This document shows, one piece after another, positions 827-49,356 of a stretch of 64,000 nucleotides of DNA. The notes under the pieces were generated by a model that saw only the letters and a list, made by a program, of their open reading frames with translations, was not told the origin of the DNA and searched no databases. Origin of the DNA: a virus (taxonomy: Duplodnaviria > Heunggongvirae > Uroviricota > Caudoviricetes); IMG/VR virus record IMGVR_UViG_3300003310_000099, positions 170,295 through 234,294 of that record, one strand, 5' to 3'. The stretch's first letter is position 1; each line of letters starts with the position of its first letter. The position numbers and the translations under genes are program-made.

Positions 827-1248
827 CACCTTGCCAAAAAATCAAACGTGATATTCTGCTTATCGTCCAGGGACTAGGTGCTGCTTCCGATGCTTCGGCA
901 AGAGAAAAAGCACTTATTGCATCCCTTGATGCAGGTATCACTGCCGAGACAGTTGACAACCAATATAATGAATTGGTTGAATTGAAACTGCATTGGGATT
1001 ATGAATATGAGTTCAGGGAAGGGCAAGTGGAAACCAAACTTCCCTGTGAATACTCACGTCATTATGAAGCAAAAGCAGTTGCTAGGAAGATGAGTGACGA
1101 TACTTGGGTTGGGTGGACTTATTGGTATGGTGGGGGTAAGCACGGGAACCCAGAAGGCGTTCCTTGGATGGAAGATGCTTATGACCTGGAACTTACAGAA
1201 ACTGAAAAACTGGTTGTGGTCCAAGAATTCAAACGAATCAATGATTAA
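823..1248 (+). CDS. Hypothetical phage protein
   Basis: ATGA overlap with the upstream stop; WVGWTYWYGGGKHG motif. Confidence 0.7.
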   Translation: MTPCQKIKRDILLIVQGLGAASDASAREKALIASLDAGITAETVDNQYNELVELKLHWDYEYEFREGQVETKLPCEYSRHYEAKAVARKMSDDTWVGWTYWYGGGKHGNPEGVPWMEDAYDLELTETEKLVVVQEFKRIND

Positions 1249-1450
1249 GCGTCCAAAATGTGGTCGTTGTAAAGGTCCACTTGATATCTGGCACGATCCA
1301 GATACGGGGATTACATTGAGTTGCAATAACTTGCAGGGACAGCACACTCCAGCTACAACAGACAAAGAATTTGAAGAAGAATTTAATAGTTTGCCAGGTG
1401 ATGATGTGGTTAAACTTGAAAAGTGGTATGGCCCAATAAGGATAGAATAA
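1241..1450 (+). CDS. Small hypothetical protein with CxxC
   Basis: ATG at 1241 overlapping the upstream gene; CGRC motif. Confidence 0.55.
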   Translation: MIKRPKCGRCKGPLDIWHDPDTGITLSCNNLQGQHTPATTDKEFEEEFNSLPGDDVVKLEKWYGPIRIE

Positions 1451-1644
1451 TGAAAATAGATGCTGAATGCACTTGGGGTGATGGGCCAGATGTTCTACTT
1501 TCCGTCTATAAAGATGGCAAAGTATATGAGCTTTTCGATTTAACTATTGAAGAAGCATTTGATTTGGCTTCCAGGTTGACGATGGCGGCACAATATGCAC
1601 GTCATCATGAAGAAACTGCGGAATGTATGACCCCGAAGCATTAG
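1450..1644 (+). CDS. Hypothetical protein
   Basis: TAATG coupling; the last 16 nt overlap tRNA-Lys. Confidence 0.55.
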   Translation: MKIDAECTWGDGPDVLLSVYKDGKVYELFDLTIEEAFDLASRLTMAAQYARHHEETAECMTPKH

Positions 1645-1700
1645 TGGTGATGCAATAGACTTTTAATCTATTGAATGGAGTTCGACTCTCCACGGGGTCA
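1629..1700 (+). tRNA. tRNA-Lys(UUU), CCA not encoded
   Basis: Acceptor GACCCCG/CGGGGTC, D-stem GCAT/ATGC, anticodon stem ATAGA/TCTAT with loop CT-TTT-AA, T-arm TGGAG-TTCGACT-CTCCA, discriminator A. Confidence 0.92.
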
Positions 1701-1703
1701 TTT

Positions 1704-1839
1704 GGAGTGTTAGCATAATGGCAATGCAGGCCCGCCTCACGAAGCGGGACGGATACTGTGGGCAGTGGGTTGATCGCCACAAGAAACGGTATAGATGGCG
1801 TGGCGACACGCCGAAGCTGGTTCGAGTCCAGCACCTCCA
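1704..1839 (+). ncRNA. tRNA-like RNA with an enlarged three-hairpin central region
   Basis: 5' GGAGTGT-TA-GCAT(AATGGCA)ATGC D-arm; 3' GCTGG-TTCGAGT-CCAGC T-arm followed by ACCTCCA. About 87 nt between the arms fold into CCCGC/GCGGG, ATACTGT/ACGGTAT and GGCGTG-GCGA-CACGCC stems. Confidence 0.7.
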
Positions 1840-1858
1840 CTAGAATAAAGGAGAATTT

Positions 1859-2062
1859 ATGAGTAGTCGTTATCCTGAAATTGATCTTATGGAACAAGTG
1901 ATCCGTGGATGTGTTTATGCATCATCTTTGAGAATGTTTTTCACTAGTATGCATAACGCATTCGCTCACGGAGAAATCTGCAAGGAAGTAAGCAGTGAAG
2001 ACCTAGCAGAGATGTTTAACCATTTTGAAAAGCTTATTGAAATAGGTAAGAAGTACGAGTAG
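1859..2062 (+). CDS. Hypothetical protein
   Basis: AAGGAG RBS, 67-aa ORF. Confidence 0.7.
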   Translation: MSSRYPEIDLMEQVIRGCVYASSLRMFFTSMHNAFAHGEICKEVSSEDLAEMFNHFEKLIEIGKKYE

Positions 2063-4928: not shown

Positions 4929-5261
4929 ATGGAACACTAGGTCACACCTTATCTGTATTGTTTCGTCAGGACAGACCTCTCTCTGCCTCAGCAGATTGTA
5001 CAGGCGTCTCATGCTTGTATAGAAGCCACTAAAGCATTTCTCCCAGAAAATTTAGAGCATCCCCATCTCGTAGTCCTTTCGGTTAAGGACCAGTCTTCAT
5101 TATTTAAAGTTGCAAAAAAACTCGACACTACGGGCGTTCGATATCGTATTTTTATCGAACCCGACCGTGGTGACGAGGCTACCGCGCTTTGTACTGAGGT
5201 CATATCTGGTGACGCTCGCCGCATCTTCAAAAACTATCAATGTATCAAGGAGTCAGCATGA
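4929..5261 (+). CDS. Pth2/PTRHD1-type peptidyl-tRNA hydrolase with in-frame TAG at codon 4 (readthrough gene or pseudogene)
   Basis: ATG GAA CAC TAG, then the open frame VTPYLYCFVRTDLSLPQQIVQASHACIE...HPHLVVLSVKD...FIEPDRGDEATALCT...FKNYQCIKESA*. The YxxVRxDL, QxxHA, VVL and EPD..TA motifs are typical of Pth2-like proteins. The stop overlaps the next ATG (ATGA). Absent from the ORF track. Confidence 0.8.
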
Positions 5262-8630: not shown

Positions 8631-9680
8631 ATGCAGTACAAAGTAACCATAGATTTTTCTTACGATCTTGAATCTGACAAAGATCACGATGAGCTTTTGA
8701 AAAGTCTAGAACAAGAACTCAATGACCTTACCAAAGGTATTGTGCTTAATAAGAGGCAGATTCGTCTCAACAAAATGAAAGCGGTCAAGCATAAGACGAG
8801 AATTGCTACATTTACTCCTGAAGAATTGCTGCCCCAAGTTGTAAAAGAAGGTAAAAAAGAATTTACCATTGATGGCAATGTCTATTCTGTGAGGATGGAC
8901 AGTTCCAGATATTTTGTTTTCAAAAGAAGCCTTGAATGTGTTGCTTGCGGCATTAAAGGCTCCAAGATGATTTTGGAAATCAACCAGCACGACAAGTCAC
9001 CTCATTTCAATTTGTATGCAGAAGAAAACGGTAAGTTGATTTTGATGACAAAGGACCACATCCACCCTAAATCTAAAGGTGGTAAGAACGAAATTGAAAA
9101 CTATGCAACGATGTGTGCAATCTGTAATAATTTAAAAGGTAATGACGAGAGTTTAACGAATGAGAACATTCGTGTTTTAAGAAAAGTTTACAATGAGAAC
9201 AAGAACCTTCCAAGGAAGCAATTCCGTGAATTGTTAGATTTGGAAAAGTCGAAGATTTCCAAAAATCATGTTAAAGTAGTTAGAAAGGTGAAGATGAAGA
9301 AAACAAGAGGCGCAGAGCGTTTAGAACGCATACAAAAAGAAACCAACAAATTACTTTGTCTGGTTGCAAATACTGAAAATGAGGCTATAATAGCACAAAT
9401 CAAGCATCTGATGAAGGTAGTGAATGACTCGGTAGCTGAATGTGAAGAGGAAGTTGTTGTACATACAAAGAGTGAAGACGCTGATACTGGCAGATGGCAC
9501 GTCGTATCTTTAGGGCCAGACGGACAATGCTCTGGTTTCCATGCTTACAAGAATGGAAGGGATACAGTAGTAAAGGATATACTTCAAGCCACAGAGTTTA
9601 TGTCCAAGAAGGATGCCCAAAGAGTTTGTGATTTACTAGGTAAAACTTATTCAGTAGTTGGTTTTCCAGATAAGAGGTAG
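8631..9680 (+). CDS. HNH-domain protein with extra C-terminal region
   Basis: CVAC...MTKDHIHPKSKGG.N.IENY.TMC.ICNNLKG. Confidence 0.8.
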   Translation: MQYKVTIDFSYDLESDKDHDELLKSLEQELNDLTKGIVLNKRQIRLNKMKAVKHKTRIATFTPEELLPQVVKEGKKEFTIDGNVYSVRMDSSRYFVFKRSLECVACGIKGSKMILEINQHDKSPHFNLYAEENGKLILMTKDHIHPKSKGGKNEIENYATMCAICNNLKGNDESLTNENIRVLRKVYNENKNLPRKQFRELLDLEKSKISKNHVKVVRKVKMKKTRGAERLERIQKETNKLLCLVANTENEAIIAQIKHLMKVVNDSVAECEEEVVVHTKSEDADTGRWHVVSLGPDGQCSGFHAYKNGRDTVVKDILQATEFMSKKDAQRVCDLLGKTYSVVGFPDKR

Positions 9681-24394: not shown

Positions 24395-25117
24395 GTGATG
24401 AACATTTTAGACATACTTCCTGACTTTCCAAGAATCTTCCACCTTCCGCATAATCCCAATGCGCAAAGATCAGACCTCATTGCATCACAAGACGATGTAA
24501 AGATTATTTTCGAGAACGATAATACTATCGTGGAAGAGAAGATCGACGCTGCTAATAGCGGTATAGTTTTCTACGAAAATAATCCTGTGATACGCAATCG
24601 CAATAACATCTTAAACAAGGGCAAGACTGGCCACCTTCGCGGTCCTGCCAAAATGCAGTTCGCCTCCATTTATAACTGGTGCTATCAGAACCGTGATAAG
24701 TTTGAAACCTTAAACAACAACCTTGGTTTTGAAGTAAGTGTTTACGGTGAATGGCTTTACGCTTTGCACGGCATTAAGTACGACAAATTACCTTCTTATT
24801 TCATCCCTTATGAATTGTATGATTGGGAGAATAGGAAGTTTATTTCTACTAAGATCACAAGGGCAGCTTTGCAGGAAGCTGGGTTTGAGGTTACGCCATT
24901 GCTGCATGAAGGTCGGCTTCCGAATTGGGAGATTTTTGATAAGTTTTGTGCAGAGAACAGTCCTTTCTCGACAACGGATTTAAGGGAAGGGGTGGTTGTG
25001 AAGGTATCGGATGATAAATACTTAACGCACAGATTCAAGATGGTGCGTAGGGGTTTCATTCAGGGTTGTCACTGGAATGAGCGAGCATTAACAAGGAATA
25101 AGCTTTGTGATGAATAA
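24395..25117 (+). CDS. RNA ligase family nucleotidyltransferase
   Basis: EEKIDAAN (motif I), YGEW, YEL, REGVVVK, FKMV. Confidence 0.85.
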   Translation: MMNILDILPDFPRIFHLPHNPNAQRSDLIASQDDVKIIFENDNTIVEEKIDAANSGIVFYENNPVIRNRNNILNKGKTGHLRGPAKMQFASIYNWCYQNRDKFETLNNNLGFEVSVYGEWLYALHGIKYDKLPSYFIPYELYDWENRKFISTKITRAALQEAGFEVTPLLHEGRLPNWEIFDKFCAENSPFSTTDLREGVVVKVSDDKYLTHRFKMVRRGFIQGCHWNERALTRNKLCDE

Positions 25118-28267: not shown

Positions 28268-29344
28268 ATGTACGATACCCAATACGAAAAGCTGTTCTTC
28301 CCTATCGACGGGAATCCTCCTTCTGCCGAAGATCGTCGTGCTTATCTTGATCCAACGAACCCAAATTCGCCCTATTTTGGGTTCGTTGGCAATAAGCGTG
28401 CAGTCGATAAGCTAATTCGTATCGACTTTGATGCTCTTGGTCGCTACAACCACTGCTGCAATGACCTGTCAGTTGCTTTCATCGGGCAAGCTGGTTGCGG
28501 TAAGACTGAACTGGCACGGCGTCATGCTAAGGCAAACAAGCTGCCTTACATCGAACTTTCTCCTAAGTCCATCAATACCTGTCACGATATCTTGAAGGCT
28601 ATTGGTCGGGCTTGTGAGGAACATAACATCCCGTTGGTCGATCTTGTCCGTGAAAACAACTTCTGGATTCCGCCCATTAATGTTTTCATTGACGAAGTTC
28701 ATGCTCTGGCACCGCCCATTGTCCAGGGTTTGCTCAAGGCCACCGAACACAATGACGCAATGCTTGTAACCGAAAAAGGTTACACTGCGGATTGCAAGCG
28801 TGTTCACTGGATGATCGCCACTACGGATCGTGGCAAGCTGTTCGATGCTTTCGACACTCGATTCTCGAAAGTGATTATCAACCTTTACACCAAGGAAGAA
28901 GTTGCACAAATTGTGCAGTTTAACAACCCTGATTGGGATTTCGATGTTTGTCGTCTGGTTGCTCATTACTGTGGAAGGATTCCGCGTGAAGCCTTGGCTT
29001 TCGCCAGGGAAATGCAGCTAGAACACAACATGAACCCTCATCTTTCTTGGCGAGAAGTTGGTCGTCGTGTTGCCAATGACAATGAGATTGATGAATTTGG
29101 CATGACTTACAAGAGGCTTGCTATCCTCAAAGCACTTGGGCAAGGTCCAATTGCCGAGAAACGTATGCCGCTTGTGGCTGGTGTTAAGGCAGAAGAACTG
29201 AATAAGTTCATCATGCCGTGGCTGCTTGCAGAAACGATGGATCAGGCAGCTTTGATTGGCGTTGGCAATAAGGGATATTGCCTGACGGATGCTGGTATCG
29301 AAGAGTTGAAGATCAGGGGTATTCCTTACAAGGAAGCAGCATGA
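28268..29344 (+). CDS. RuvB-like AAA+ ATPase
   Basis: Walker A GQAGCGKT, Walker B FIDEVH, ATTDRGKL..AF.TRF, GRIPREA, C-terminal winged-helix-like region. Confidence 0.8.
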   Translation: MYDTQYEKLFFPIDGNPPSAEDRRAYLDPTNPNSPYFGFVGNKRAVDKLIRIDFDALGRYNHCCNDLSVAFIGQAGCGKTELARRHAKANKLPYIELSPKSINTCHDILKAIGRACEEHNIPLVDLVRENNFWIPPINVFIDEVHALAPPIVQGLLKATEHNDAMLVTEKGYTADCKRVHWMIATTDRGKLFDAFDTRFSKVIINLYTKEEVAQIVQFNNPDWDFDVCRLVAHYCGRIPREALAFAREMQLEHNMNPHLSWREVGRRVANDNEIDEFGMTYKRLAILKALGQGPIAEKRMPLVAGVKAEELNKFIMPWLLAETMDQAALIGVGNKGYCLTDAGIEELKIRGIPYKEAA

Positions 29345-34447: not shown

Positions 34448-35077
34448 ATGAAAGATTATCCATCTATACCTAAAGTTCTAAAAGATCATATCGACTCTGA
34501 CTGCATTGCATTCTATAAGTACGATGGCAGTCAAATTAGAGTAGAATGGTCCAAGAAAAAAGGCTGGCATAAGTTCGCAACCAGAGGCCAACTCTTCGAT
34601 AAGTCGGAGAAGACTTTCGGTTGCGCCGTAGACATTTTCAACAACACACATGCCGAAGCCTTGAACAAAGTCATCCAAGACAAATATCCTAAAGCCACAG
34701 AAATCCTGGCATTCTTGGAATTTGTAGGACCACATTCATTCGCTGGACTCCATGACCCTGGAATCTTGAATGTAGAAAGTAATGATCCCAAGGAACTAGT
34801 CCTTTTCGATATCAATATCCACAAAAAGGGCATTGTAAGTCCAGCAGAGTTTGTCAAAAACTTCTCCCACCTTCGCTCTGCCGAAGTTCTATACCAAGGC
34901 AAGCTAAACGACGACTTCATCAAGGATGTTCGTGAAGGTAAGTTTAAGGGTGAGGAAGGTGTCGTCTGTAAGGGTGGAGAAGGGCACAAAATTTGGATGG
35001 CAAAGATTAAGACTTGGGCATATTTGAAGAAGATTCAGAAGTTTTTTGGTAGCAGTTATGGGAGCTATTGGGAGTAA
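34448..35077 (+). CDS. RNA-ligase-like nucleotidyltransferase (second copy)
   Basis: YPSI, KYDGS, EFVG, LFDI, EGVVCK, AKIK motifs. Confidence 0.75.
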   Translation: MKDYPSIPKVLKDHIDSDCIAFYKYDGSQIRVEWSKKKGWHKFATRGQLFDKSEKTFGCAVDIFNNTHAEALNKVIQDKYPKATEILAFLEFVGPHSFAGLHDPGILNVESNDPKELVLFDINIHKKGIVSPAEFVKNFSHLRSAEVLYQGKLNDDFIKDVREGKFKGEEGVVCKGGEGHKIWMAKIKTWAYLKKIQKFFGSSYGSYWE

Positions 35078-44626: not shown

Positions 44627-46768
44627 ATGCATTGGTTCAATTTCTCATTCCGTGATTGGGTGCTGGCTGAAGGTGTAAACACTAATCTTCTGACTGCGCA
44701 ATATAAGAAAAGATTCCCACAAGCCACAGAAGAAGAAATTGCCGAGAAAATCCAGTTAGCCGTAGCTGCCGATCCGACTCCTAATAAACAATATGTTACT
44801 TGGATTTTCAGGGAATTGCTCAACAACAGAATGCGTCTCCCCGAAGATTCCCCTGTTACCCTACAACAATTAGCAATATTTGATAAAAGCAAACCCGCTC
44901 TCAAAAGATTAGGTAAAGAAGTCGATATAACCAAATATGATCGTCCAACCCTCTGGAAGACCTTGAGTGAACTAGGAGGTGTAACTAGCAAGCGTGCCGA
45001 AGCTGCTAAAGTTAAACAAGAAGGTGCGGAAAAGATATATGAAGATGATGAATGGTTAGTAATTAAAATGACCAAACCAGAAGCTTGTACTTATTATGCA
45101 AGAGGGACCAAATGGTGTACTTCCAATGCAGAAGTTGCTTCAGGGTATTTGGATGAAGGTCCATTATTCATGATTTATCGCAATGGGCAAGTATATGCAC
45201 AGGCTCATGTCGAGAGTGGGCAGCTAATGGACCCAGAAGACGTGCCAATTCCTCCAGGTAAAGTGCCAGAAAAATTAAGAGACATTATTAAACAGCATGT
45301 TCCTGTTGACGATGAATATAAAGGGAAAAGGAATGAATTATTCGGCATTAAGGAAAAAGTAATTGAATATCCAGATGGATTTTATTGGGGAACATCAAAC
45401 CATAAAGACTTCTTATTAATCGCCCCAAGTGGTGAGGAAGAAGTATTTTTAAGAAACGTAGATGGTACTGTGTGGGTTGATCGACCAAAGGACAAAACGC
45501 TTGAAGGTATCATGGATCGTAAGGGCGATTGGAAAAAGAACCTGGAAGAATATAAGCATTCTTCTAATTGGAATAAGTATATTGTTGACTTTATTCTTAA
45601 AAATAAGTCTATAACACACATTAATCCTCTGCAAACTACCTGGAATTTAGGTGATCTATCTGAGGAAGATAGGAATACGTTGTTCACTGCTAGACAAGAT
45701 TTAATGCCACCAATTGAGATGAAAACAGATGGTTATTTGTGGACGGCTCTTGGGCTTGGTAGCTACGTTCTATTAGATAAATGGTATCCAACTCTATCTA
45801 TGCAGATGGACAACGACGGAAACTTATCTTATGGAAATTGGTTAAATAAATCTCAATCTAAGATACTCAATGATGAGAAATTTGATAAATCTAAATACAG
45901 TCTTGCTACGGCTCAATTCTTGATAAGAAACAATATAGAACATTATCCTAGAGATAACCGCACTAGACACTATAACTCCTGGGAGTTCAAGGACTTGCTG
46001 CCAGAGCATCAAGCAATGGTTTTGCAGAAATTCCCACATTTTAATGATGACTTAGTTTATCATCAAAAGCAGTCAACGGATCAAAAAGAATTATTAAAGA
46101 GATTAGGTTCATCGAGTGGTTTGTATGACATGCAGTCACTGGATGAGAAAACAGTGATACTAAGACCATACGATACTTTAAGTGCGGAGAAAATAGGTGA
46201 TACCAGGCACACGCATGACCTATTCGGCAGCAATTACGAAGAAAAGGACAGGATTAAAAAGCTGCTTTACAACAAGATAAATGGGTATGGAGATGGTAGT
46301 ATAGGTTGGGAATTTGAGCAAGATTTCAAAAATGGTAATTTGGACAAAATTAAAGAAAACCTTCCATTCTTGGACACGGAACTATTGAAAGGTGCAGACC
46401 CGAAAAGCTATACGGTTGCCAATTCATTGGCTAACGCTGTAGGTAAACACGTTATGCGTGAATTTATGAAAATATTGTATAATGATTTGAAACCTTTTGA
46501 AAATGATAAATTTAAGATCGTGTTAAAGGATGATAACATTTACTTTGTGACAGATTATGATAATGTTATCAATTATTACAAACAAGAAAAGAACTTGAAG
46601 TCATTGGAGGAAGAATATAAGAAGTGGCATAAGAGTATAAAGATTCCATTTGAGACGCTTGAGCAACAAATAGTGGCGATACCTAGAGAGGTGGATAAGG
46701 AAGATTTCGTTAAAAATCTAAACAGCGATAAATATTATCAAAAGAATAAATACAGTTTTTCAAACTAA
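44627..46768 (+). CDS. Large hypothetical phage protein, possible head-associated protein
   Basis: N-terminal FRDWVLAEG; DPT.NKQY..W and A..Y..GTKWCT motifs as in large-phage proteins. Confidence 0.7.
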   Translation: MHWFNFSFRDWVLAEGVNTNLLTAQYKKRFPQATEEEIAEKIQLAVAADPTPNKQYVTWIFRELLNNRMRLPEDSPVTLQQLAIFDKSKPALKRLGKEVDITKYDRPTLWKTLSELGGVTSKRAEAAKVKQEGAEKIYEDDEWLVIKMTKPEACTYYARGTKWCTSNAEVASGYLDEGPLFMIYRNGQVYAQAHVESGQLMDPEDVPIPPGKVPEKLRDIIKQHVPVDDEYKGKRNELFGIKEKVIEYPDGFYWGTSNHKDFLLIAPSGEEEVFLRNVDGTVWVDRPKDKTLEGIMDRKGDWKKNLEEYKHSSNWNKYIVDFILKNKSITHINPLQTTWNLGDLSEEDRNTLFTARQDLMPPIEMKTDGYLWTALGLGSYVLLDKWYPTLSMQMDNDGNLSYGNWLNKSQSKILNDEKFDKSKYSLATAQFLIRNNIEHYPRDNRTRHYNSWEFKDLLPEHQAMVLQKFPHFNDDLVYHQKQSTDQKELLKRLGSSSGLYDMQSLDEKTVILRPYDTLSAEKIGDTRHTHDLFGSNYEEKDRIKKLLYNKINGYGDGSIGWEFEQDFKNGNLDKIKENLPFLDTELLKGADPKSYTVANSLANAVGKHVMREFMKILYNDLKPFENDKFKIVLKDDNIYFVTDYDNVINYYKQEKNLKSLEEEYKKWHKSIKIPFETLEQQIVAIPREVDKEDFVKNLNSDKYYQKNKYSFSN

Positions 46769-48414: not shown

Positions 48415-49356
48415 ATGATTCCTGGTGGCGTTATTGTCTCGGACTCTGGTGTTATCACAGTCTCGGTCAGTGGCAAGCTTTATTCGTTTGCCAGGGACCA
48501 CATGAATTACAATCTGGTCAAGGAAGCTCTGAAGGACAATAAGCTGGAGAATATTCCCAAGTTGGCGGATATTCCCAAGTCTATTCAAGAGTTCACTGGT
48601 TCCAATGTCACTGTTGTCAATGGCAACATTCTTTATAAGAATAAGCCGCTTGAGAACAGTTTGACACGGCGAATCCTTGCCCTTATGAATGAGGGTTTCC
48701 CATTCGCTCCGATGCTCAAGTTCCTTGAGAATTTGATGCAGAATCCGAGTTGCCATTCTGTACGGGAACTTTATAATTTCCTGGTACACCGCAACTTGCC
48801 GATTACTGAGGATGGGTGCTTCTTGGCTTATAAGTCTGTGCGCCCAGACTATATGGATTGGCATTCCAACAGTGTTCTCAATTCGGTTGGTGCAACCATT
48901 CCGCCGATTGAGCGCAATGAAGTTGATGATAATTGGCGTCTCGACTGTAGCTCAGGCTACCATGTCGGTGCTATGGAATATGTCGATAATTTCCACCGTC
49001 ATGATGGGCACATCATGATTGTGAAGGTTAATCCGAAGGACGTGGTTAGCGTTCCCGAAGGGGAATGTACCAAGTGCCGTGTGTGCTGGTATGAAGTTGT
49101 GGGCGAAATGCAGGAAGAGGAATTGGTGCGTCCCGTCTACGCTACTACTCCTACATCCTATCAGCCTTCCGTCCCTAACAGCATCACCCAACAAGATGAA
49201 GGCGGCTGGCCCAATGATATCGTTGCTGATGACGACGACGATGACGAAGATGAATGGGGCGACGACGATGACGATGGTGGTTGGCCCGAAGATGACGAAG
49301 ACGATGACGAAGAATATGAAGAAGATGACGATGAGTACGGTCCCGTCGAACCGTAG
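48415..49356 (+). CDS. rIIB: rIIB-like protein with acidic tail
   Basis: FLENLMQNPS..SV.ELY.FL, LPIT.DG.FLAYK.V, RN.VDDN...CSSG.HVG, VKVNP.DVVSVP, RVC.YEVV. Confidence 0.88.
   Translation: MIPGGVIVSDSGVITVSVSGKLYSFARDHMNYNLVKEALKDNKLENIPKLADIPKSIQEFTGSNVTVVNGNILYKNKPLENSLTRRILALMNEGFPFAPMLKFLENLMQNPSCHSVRELYNFLVHRNLPITEDGCFLAYKSVRPDYMDWHSNSVLNSVGATIPPIERNEVDDNWRLDCSSGYHVGAMEYVDNFHRHDGHIMIVKVNPKDVVSVPEGECTKCRVCWYEVVGEMQEEELVRPVYATTPTSYQPSVPNSITQQDEGGWPNDIVADDDDDDEDEWGDDDDDGGWPEDDEDDDEEYEEDDDEYGPVEP

Follow-up and report, generated by a model that had tools for sequence, protein, structure and literature searches.

The window analysed here, 64,000 nt of a tailed-phage genome (Caudoviricetes; bases 170295-234294 of the 373-kb IMG/VR virus record IMGVR_UViG_3300003310_000099), contains one standard tRNA gene, tRNA-Lys(UUU), which was identified by both Rfam and ARAGORN. 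Three nucleotides after it begins a single-copy, 136-nt tRNA-like element (window positions 1704-1839), followed by an open reading frame (ORF) of 67 amino acids (ORF67; Table 1). No promoter-like sites are present between 631 and 2362 on the plus strand, and the first terminator-like site 3' of the element is located at 2311-2343 on the same strand. Because no promoter- or terminator-like site separates them, the element is probably co-transcribed with ORF67, as well as with tRNA-Lys.

Table 1. Features of the tRNA-Lys locus (window positions) and tRNAs with long variable arms elsewhere in the genome (genome positions).
Feature	Position	Strand	Basis or remark
tRNA-Lys(UUU)	1629-1700	+	Rfam RF00005, 55.3 bits; ARAGORN; fold z -4.2; no encoded CCA
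Spacer TTT (3 nt) between tRNA-Lys and element	1701-1703	+	sequence
5' acceptor strand GGAGTGT, T1708 bulged	1704-1710	+	sequence and minimum-energy fold
U8-A9 (T1711-A1712) and D arm GCAT-AATGGCA-ATGC (1713-1727) with G18G19	1711-1727	+	sequence
Hairpin 1, CCCGC-CTCACGAA-GCGGG, 5-bp stem, 8-nt loop CUCACGAA	1731-1748	+	fold
Long arm, two-tiered, 40 nt	1753-1792	+	fold
GNRA hairpin GGCGTG-GCGA-CACGCC, 6 bp, 3 nt 5' of the T arm	1797-1812	+	fold
Canonical T arm GCTGG-TTCGAGT-CCAGC	1816-1832	+	sequence; aligns to the T arm of the tRNA-Sec model
3' acceptor strand ACCTCC (1833-1838) and discriminator A1839	1833-1839	+	within the 9-mer ACCTCCACT
Shine-Dalgarno AAGGAG (1848-1853) and ORF67 (1859-2062)	1848-2062	+	directly 3' of the element, co-oriented
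tRNAs with long variable arms and class I-type anticodons	81418-81502, 82500-82580, 44773-44860, 85493-85580 (genome)

The original prediction described a tRNA-like layout carrying a three-hairpin insert. The sequence is exactly as described, and a minimum-energy RNA fold (-52 kcal/mol) agrees and recovers every described helix. The features of a tRNA elbow, namely U8, a D arm with G18G19 and a T loop of the form UUCRANY, are present, and the D stem is the same as that of the neighbouring tRNA-Lys. The element lacks a canonical 7-bp acceptor stem continuous with a 5-bp T stem; its acceptor stem comprises six pairs with T1708 bulged and the 3' side one base short, or five pairs and two mismatches in an alternative register. 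It also lacks a canonical 7-nt anticodon loop followed by a variable region of about 4-21 nt, as hairpin 1 carries an 8-nt loop and is separated from the T stem by 67 nt. The long arm consists of a 7-bp outer stem (ATACTGT/ACGGTAT, 1753-1759 with 1786-1792), a 5x5 internal loop and an inner 4-bp stem (GTGG-GTTGATCG-CCAC, 1765-1768 with 1777-1780) with an 8-nt loop. The GNRA hairpin could represent either a class II-type variable arm, in which case hairpin 1 occupies the anticodon-arm position, or itself a hairpin at the anticodon-arm position.

As judged from its sequence, descent of the element from a tRNA is secure, because the D arm is identical at 17 of 17 positions to that of tRNA-Gly(GCC) from the same genome (genome 55138-55154; blastn-short E 0.002) and the T arm is canonical, sharing 16 of 17 positions with those of tRNA-Asn and tRNA-Gln from this genome. 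The earlier description of the element as tRNA-derived is thus borne out by this D arm, by the canonical elbow and by the direct abutment on a tRNA gene. Aligned globally without its long arm, the element matches the phage's tRNA-Gly(CCC) and tRNA-Gly(GCC) better than any other tRNA of this genome or of LR756511.1, an uncultured 595-kb phage that is the nearest complete relative by rIIA (54% amino-acid identity). Its D arm and 5' half most resemble the phage's own tRNA-Gly genes, and its middle has been rebuilt. The long arm has no paralogue in the genome and shows no significant similarity to any of its tRNAs.

More specific identities were considered and rejected. ARAGORN in intron mode proposes a tRNA-Leu(CAA) with a 48-nt intron, an artefact with a weak anticodon stem, a G.A mismatch and G at position 33. 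A chimera of two tRNAs was suggested by eye by the resemblance of 1759-1779 to a class II D arm (TG-GGC-AGTGGGTTGATC-GCC-A) and of 1765-1780 to a decayed T arm; it is unsupported, since 278 of 500 shuffles align locally to the 58 tRNAs of the genome as well as the long arm does. The 373-kb record, a provirus by its classification, appears to correspond to the final ~373 kb of Ga0071082_100015, a JGI metagenome contig of ~596 kb that contains a stretch identical to the window, so that the absence of Ser, Tyr and most Leu tRNAs from the record is not readable as absence from the phage. A Leu, Ser or Tyr identity argued from such missing class II tRNAs fails, because the Leu/Tyr/Ser cluster of LR756511.1 corresponds to a part of the contig outside the record.

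The element matches no Rfam family at gathering thresholds and is not called by ARAGORN without the intron option. The tRNA model RF00005 (gathering cut-off 29 bits) does not match 1704-1842, not even when a 301-nt slice is searched at E<=10. The only overlapping Rfam match at E<=10 is to tRNA-Sec (RF01852), which scores 18.7 bits (E 0.09-0.27), below its cut-off of 47 bits, and aligns to the 3' half alone (GNRA hairpin, T arm and acceptor), skipping the D and anticodon arms. For transfer-messenger RNA (tmRNA), ARAGORN -m makes no call and position 3-70 is A-U instead of G3-U70, and the permuted-tmRNA model reaches 7.8 bits against a cut-off of 47. The Y RNA-like family YrlA (RF02553) gives no match at E<=10 over 1600-1900. 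A strong match to an already described Rfam family, the outcome that the original prediction had named as adverse to it, was therefore not seen, tRNA-Sec being the best.

Megablast and blastn searches against 50,697 phage records returned nothing beyond generic tRNA pieces. An exact 23-mer search of IMG/VR gave no match, the element's own genome record contains no paralogue, and BLAST of the element against the whole of LR756511.1 gave no match. A covariance model of the element (R1), searched against 1.07 Mb comprising its own record, LR756511.1 and every related contig fetched, scores the element alone as a true match (179 bits). The next-best R1 scores belong to a tRNA-like RNA of contig L007 (30.8 bits) and then to the phage's own tRNA-Gly genes, and among 91 loci recovered with loop-anchored patterns R1 finds no like architecture. 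Exact-pattern scans with the D arm, hairpin-1 loop and T loop detected no such RNA in IMG/VR, a metagenome collection and 185,579 species genomes; matches to the D arm plus T loop were mostly adjacent ordinary tRNA pairs, and those to the hairpin-1 loop plus T loop were just ordinary tRNAs and unrelated long tRNA-like RNAs. The L007 match (9459-9591 of IMGVR_UViG_3300033066_001740, an unrelated 94-kb phage contig) is a different, 133-nt tRNA-like RNA with the same D arm, in which the anticodon loop is replaced by a long irregular arm ending in a T-loop-like hairpin; its variable arm is GUAA-capped and its T arm normal. Homologues with covarying insert stems, whose absence the original prediction had named as counting against it, were not found as far as the databases reach. 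Literature searches found no published description of the element.

Syntenic contigs were fetched via flanking proteins, and nine related contigs and LR756511.1 were compared. The element lies in a hypervariable slot bounded by a 69-aa zinc-ribbon gene (window 1241-1450) and a DUF2934 gene (2094-2294). In this genome the slot contains a 64-aa ORF, tRNA-Lys, the element and ORF67. In LR756511.1 and in L023, whose 64-aa ORF is 98% identical, the DUF2934 gene comes immediately after tRNA-Lys. L021 has undergone a deletion and retains, after tRNA-Lys, only the last ~20 codons of ORF67 as a 3' remnant, and L017 keeps ORF67 (86% amino-acid identity) preceded by a 146-nt spacer. The slot is occupied by a PD-(D/E)XK nuclease gene in L024 and by a 168-aa helix-turn-helix (HTH) ORF in L019, L028 and L029, and it contains no tRNA in L022 and L025. 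Across the slot contigs, a set that also includes L002, tRNA-Lys occurs in three sequence types. Given this variable content, the element is specific to its strain and dispensable, and the slot that contains it is a landing pad for accessory genes.

The spacer of L017 was rejected as a homologue of the element. MAFFT and pairwise alignments yield patches of identity with a chance-level score (55-63 of 1000 shuffles as good; p ~0.06), and the spacer has background G+C and neither D nor T arm; synonymous sites of the genes flanking it are still 77-80% identical. The two regions have in common only the 9-mer ACCTCCACT (window 1833-1841 and L017:3219-3227, 17-23 nt 5' of the ORF67 start codon) and the ORF67 ribosome-binding site GGAGAAT. 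In both genomes the CCUCC of this 9-mer pairs with an upstream GGAG-containing strand, GGAG-U-GU here and GGUGGAGG in L017, and the 9-mer may be an anti-Shine-Dalgarno-like or processing signal. That exactly these parts are shared would suit a cis-acting leader of ORF67, in which a structured 5' region sequesters CCUCC and sets the mRNA 5' end, the tRNA shape being incidental. Such a role needs no canonical D or T arm, however, and L021 has lost the region together with most of ORF67; the 9-mer could also be a mere remnant of a shared ancestor, and we regard a leader function as quite unlikely.

With about even confidence, we interpret the element as a young tRNA paralogue that is dispensable, lies in a recombination hot spot and is no standard decoder. 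In this interpretation it would be transcribed along with tRNA-Lys and ORF67, and the D-loop/T-loop elbow together with the stack of acceptor and T arm would allow its excision by RNase P and 3'-end enzymes. With the element excised, tRNA-Lys would have a free 3' end and the ORF67 message a free 5' end, and the element would persist as a stable, tRNA-like molecule of ~136 nt that would not function as a standard decoding tRNA. Processing like a tRNA is plausible, and the element may be either a neutral relic or a strain-specific accessory RNA.

Several observations weigh against a simple paralogue of this kind. The insert resembles structured RNA, unlike random A+T-rich filler, with moderate statistics: fold z-scores are -2.35 for the 87-nt middle (5 of 200 shuffles as good), -2.66 for the long arm (1/200), -3.36 for the GNRA hairpin (2/200), -1.78 for hairpin 1 (13/200) and -1.74 for the whole element (10/200), compared with the much lower value of the neighbouring real tRNA-Lys (Table 1). 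The complete pairing in all arms noted in the original prediction is therefore correct as to the pairs, but statistically it amounts to just moderate evidence. Furthermore, the 87-nt middle has a G+C content of 63%, compared with 41% for the genome and 42% for the L017 spacer, and the whole element reaches 59%, a value attained by only two of the genome's 58 tRNAs, which average 52%. Such a high G+C content argues for structural selection or a very recent origin and not for long neutral decay, and together with the stable arms it keeps functional readings alive. The elbow nucleotides of the element are also all intact. Finally, tRNA expansions can be functional in this phage lineage, as indicated by a conserved and covarying family of expanded tRNAs in the same genome.

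This family of 110-135-nt tRNAs lies at 24.4-28.0 kb of the genome (L061:4405-8001, genome 24405-28001), with orthologues on the minus strand of LR756511.1 (288344-291437; L044:8344-11437). In its members, which standard ARAGORN misses, a conserved two-tiered arm of ~48 nt separates the D region from an ordinary anticodon arm; it contains the motifs ACUYRGAY-hairpin-GUCYCC and then CWUACAAAC, and the anticodons found are CAU (genome 25210-25342), UUU, UCU, UCG and CCA. In the aligned family, 94.9% of cells are paired, compared with 36-53% when partners are slid by 1-3 columns, and double changes occur in 17 of 24 pairs, values reached by none of 500 shuffles. A model of the family (R2) scores true members at 93-119 bits and further members at 32-63 bits, recovering 19 more in four other large IMG/VR phage contigs. 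The family, whose loci also include L168-L172, is conserved and covaries across at least six large-phage contigs. Keyword literature searches found no published description of it. The Rfam tmRNA model gives one member (genome 24758-24884) a score of 29 bits. Like the element, the family has an outer stem, an internal loop and an inner hairpin, as well as a hairpin 2-5 nt 5' of the T arm, and in one member (genome 24954-25064) a GAAA tetraloop replaces the anticodon loop, comparable to the GCGA loop near the T arm of the element. In contrast, the motifs ACUYRGAY...GUCYCC...CWUACAAAC are absent from the element, which is unique to one genome, and R2 gives no match in the window at E<=1, placing the element outside the family. 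As the lineage tolerates and conserves expanded tRNAs, the orphan element is not rated as mere junk. It is nonetheless unlikely that the element is a functional, strain-specific tRNA-like RNA with an undescribed architecture, defined by a six-helix junction, an 8-nt anticodon-like loop and a two-tiered arm. If it were, it would belong functionally with the extra-arm tRNAs of this clade and with T4 RNAC, and it could possibly serve as a charged adaptor for a non-standard codon or as a mimic that blunts a host defence targeting tRNAs.

A related proposal treats the element as an exotic decoding tRNA, in which hairpin 1 is an anticodon arm with an 8-nt loop reading CAC, ACG or the quadruplet CACG, the GNRA hairpin is a class II variable arm and the long arm is an addition that is either tolerated or binds protein. 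Segments of 20-94 nt were deleted in silico in all possible ways, and each of the resulting 4,500 constructs was run through ARAGORN. The commonest product (375 constructs) is the one in which the long arm is removed, and this deletion alone yields a clean class II-shaped cloverleaf in which hairpin 1 serves as the anticodon arm, with its 5-bp stem fully paired and U33 present in its 8-nt loop, CU-CACG-AA; ARAGORN reads the anticodon as 'cacg'. A decoder of this shape would not be without parallels: several accepted tRNAs of the phage have GNRA-capped variable arms, ARAGORN also calls a tRNA with a 4-nt anticodon, tRNA-???(gaaa), in the relative, and the conserved extra-arm family of the same genome has ordinary anticodon loops. 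Nevertheless, we consider decoding a slim prospect, given that the acceptor stem is bulged and has six pairs, no tRNA covariance model accepts the element, it is absent from every relative sampled and lies outside the extra-arm family, and no recoding site is known that would require it. The suggestion in the original prediction that the element could be a substrate of an aminoacyl-tRNA synthetase likewise found no positive evidence, its acceptor being bulged and its anticodon-like loop having 8 nt.

The same constructs bear on the idea of an intron-bearing precursor, from which one or more inserts would be cut by some nuclease and the halves joined by a phage RNA ligase to give a tRNA of normal size. 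No single deletion restored a canonical tRNA (0/4,500). Five products survived the 110% ARAGORN threshold, all with mismatched anticodon stems, and none survived 115%, compared with 42 and 28, respectively, of the genome's 58 real tRNAs. By eye, no bulge-helix-bulge motif is present in the element, and the insert, at 40-88 nt, falls well short of a group I intron, whose core needs >200 nt. Furthermore, the splicing enzymes EndA (PF01974) and RtcB (PF01139) are encoded neither in the phage's own record, which is part of the ~596-kb contig, nor in the complete relative LR756511.1. On the other side stand the polymorphic structured tRNA insertions of the clade, exemplified by a 22-nt hairpin in the tRNA-Lys of L028 and L029 that L023 lacks, the other elongated tRNA genes of this genome, the 'enigmatic introns' in Lak megaphage tRNAs (PMC6784885) and an RNA ligase gene in the window. 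Of the two phage RNA ligases invoked in the original prediction, this gene (PF09414, window 24395-25117) stands up, but the second (34448-35077) has no Pfam match. Splicing of the element is, on this evidence, very unlikely.

Alternatively, the element could mimic a tRNA and act as a decoy or sponge for a host anticodon nuclease, tRNA sensor or tRNA-binding enzyme. Its elbow is intact, it adjoins a stand-alone tRNA-Lys(UUU) and its locus is a hot spot for accessory genes; host nucleases are known to attack tRNA-Lys, and phage tRNAs to counter defences of this type (PMC11464382, PMC10264068). However, the hairpin-1 loop CUCACGAA is unlike the tRNA-Lys loop CUUUUAA, and nothing ties hairpin 1 to a nuclease target. 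Considering also that the element is not conserved, that it has no linked defence or partner gene and that the idea is purely inferential, a decoy role seems decidedly improbable. Least credible of all, to a degree that makes it hardly worth entertaining, is a gene for a 41-aa basic peptide within the element (ORF 1718-1843). Its frame is open, with an ATG at 1718 and GGAG 10 nt upstream, but the peptide has no Pfam match and no counterpart in relatives, the identical public contig carries no gene call there, and the frame crosses canonical D- and T-arm sequence.

Other tRNA genes of this phage and its relatives have also been remodelled. In L028 (2666-2759) and L029 (1171-1264), a 22-nt hairpin, ACGCAGTTGGCTCTGCGACAAT, follows C32 of the anticodon loop of tRNA-Lys(UUU), and the 168-aa HTH ORF lies 3' of the interrupted gene. 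The insertion was seen in two independent assemblies, and an otherwise near-identical allele in L023 (358-428) is without it. The presence and absence of this hairpin between near-identical alleles indicates that structured tRNA insertions are ongoing in the clade. Elongated tRNA genes outside the window are located at genome positions 49031-49179, 28411-28501 and 166535-166715; they comprise a 149-nt gene whose UUUAAG-type loop is interrupted at position 37/38 by 76 nt, a tRNA-Val(GAC) with 18 extra nt at the start of the anticodon loop (Rfam tRNA 29.0 bits) and a 181-nt unit with an internal T-arm-like hairpin. Long variable arms also occur on tRNAs with the class I-type anticodons Cys GCA, Arg CCU, Asn GUU and Ile UAU (Table 1), three of them GCAA-capped. 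In addition, the genome encodes a 137-nt tmRNA-like RNA (305082-305218) beginning GGGCCAGACAGGUUUCGAC, which is partly conserved in LR756511.1, where the last 30 nt alone match (90%); LR756511.1 additionally has a standard tmRNA of 353 nt (coordinates for LR756511.1: 2250-2383, 341280-341632).

An amber-reading tRNA (anticodon CUA) is encoded at genome positions 167507-167581, 2.7 kb upstream of the window, and LR756511.1 carries a CUA-anticodon tRNA at a similar distance from its own tRNA-Lys. Within the window, an ORF downstream of an in-frame TAG (4929-5261) matches the Pfam family PTH2 (E 1.7e-6), and the public gene call for the relative L023 required TAG to be read as Q.

Taken alone, the element is one more odd tRNA-like gene of a giant phage, and it cannot yet say much because it has no relatives. 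Its value lies in the pattern of tRNA-gene remodelling to which it contributes, formed by the orphan element, the 22-nt hairpin in tRNA-Lys, the elongated tRNAs and the extra-arm family. Should any of these RNAs prove to be charged, spliced or directed against host defence, this would bear on why phages carry tRNAs and on what the stable RNAs RNAC and RNAD of phage T4 do.

Like class II tRNAs, the element has a long stem-loop 5' of the T arm and a discriminator A. Furthermore, +1 frameshift-suppressor tRNAs have 8-nt anticodon loops, and hairpin 1 likewise presents an 8-membered loop with U33. The element differs from both class II and suppressor tRNAs in its additional 40-nt arm, its bulged acceptor and the absence of any model that accepts it.

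The 'enigmatic introns' of Lak megaphage tRNAs (Devoto et al. 2019, PMC6784885) offer a second comparison. As with the element, these tRNAs are found in genomes >500 kb, are too long for bacterial tRNA finders and carry inserts of unsettled fate that some genomes have and others lack. However, Lak inserts lie in the anticodon loop, as recognised by tRNAscan in eukaryote mode, and their removal leaves a recognisable tRNA, whereas no single excision restores one from the element, whose extra arm lies 3' of the anticodon-like hairpin.

The function of T4 RNAC and RNAD has been unexplained for decades (PMC3014915, PMC9697503). RNAC (species 1 RNA, 139 nt) is in the same size class as the element and, together with RNAD, directly follows tRNA-Arg in the same orientation in the T4 tRNA cluster, which also contains the homing-endonuclease gene segB; the element likewise abuts a tRNA gene. 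The fold of RNAC resembles that of the element in its canonical T arm (CCGGG-UUCGAAU-CCCGG), imperfect acceptor-like stem, long irregular arm and perfect hairpin just 5' of the T arm. Contrastingly, RNAC has neither a D arm nor an anticodon-like hairpin, both of which the element possesses, and it is conserved in T4-like phages, with a homologue in L094, whereas the element has none. When the T4 tRNA region was searched with R1 with filters off, the T arm of RNAC alone aligned (8.9 bits), which indicates no homology. T4 RNAC and the Lak phage tRNAs are the closest analogues of the element, with RNAC the nearest in architecture though not by descent.

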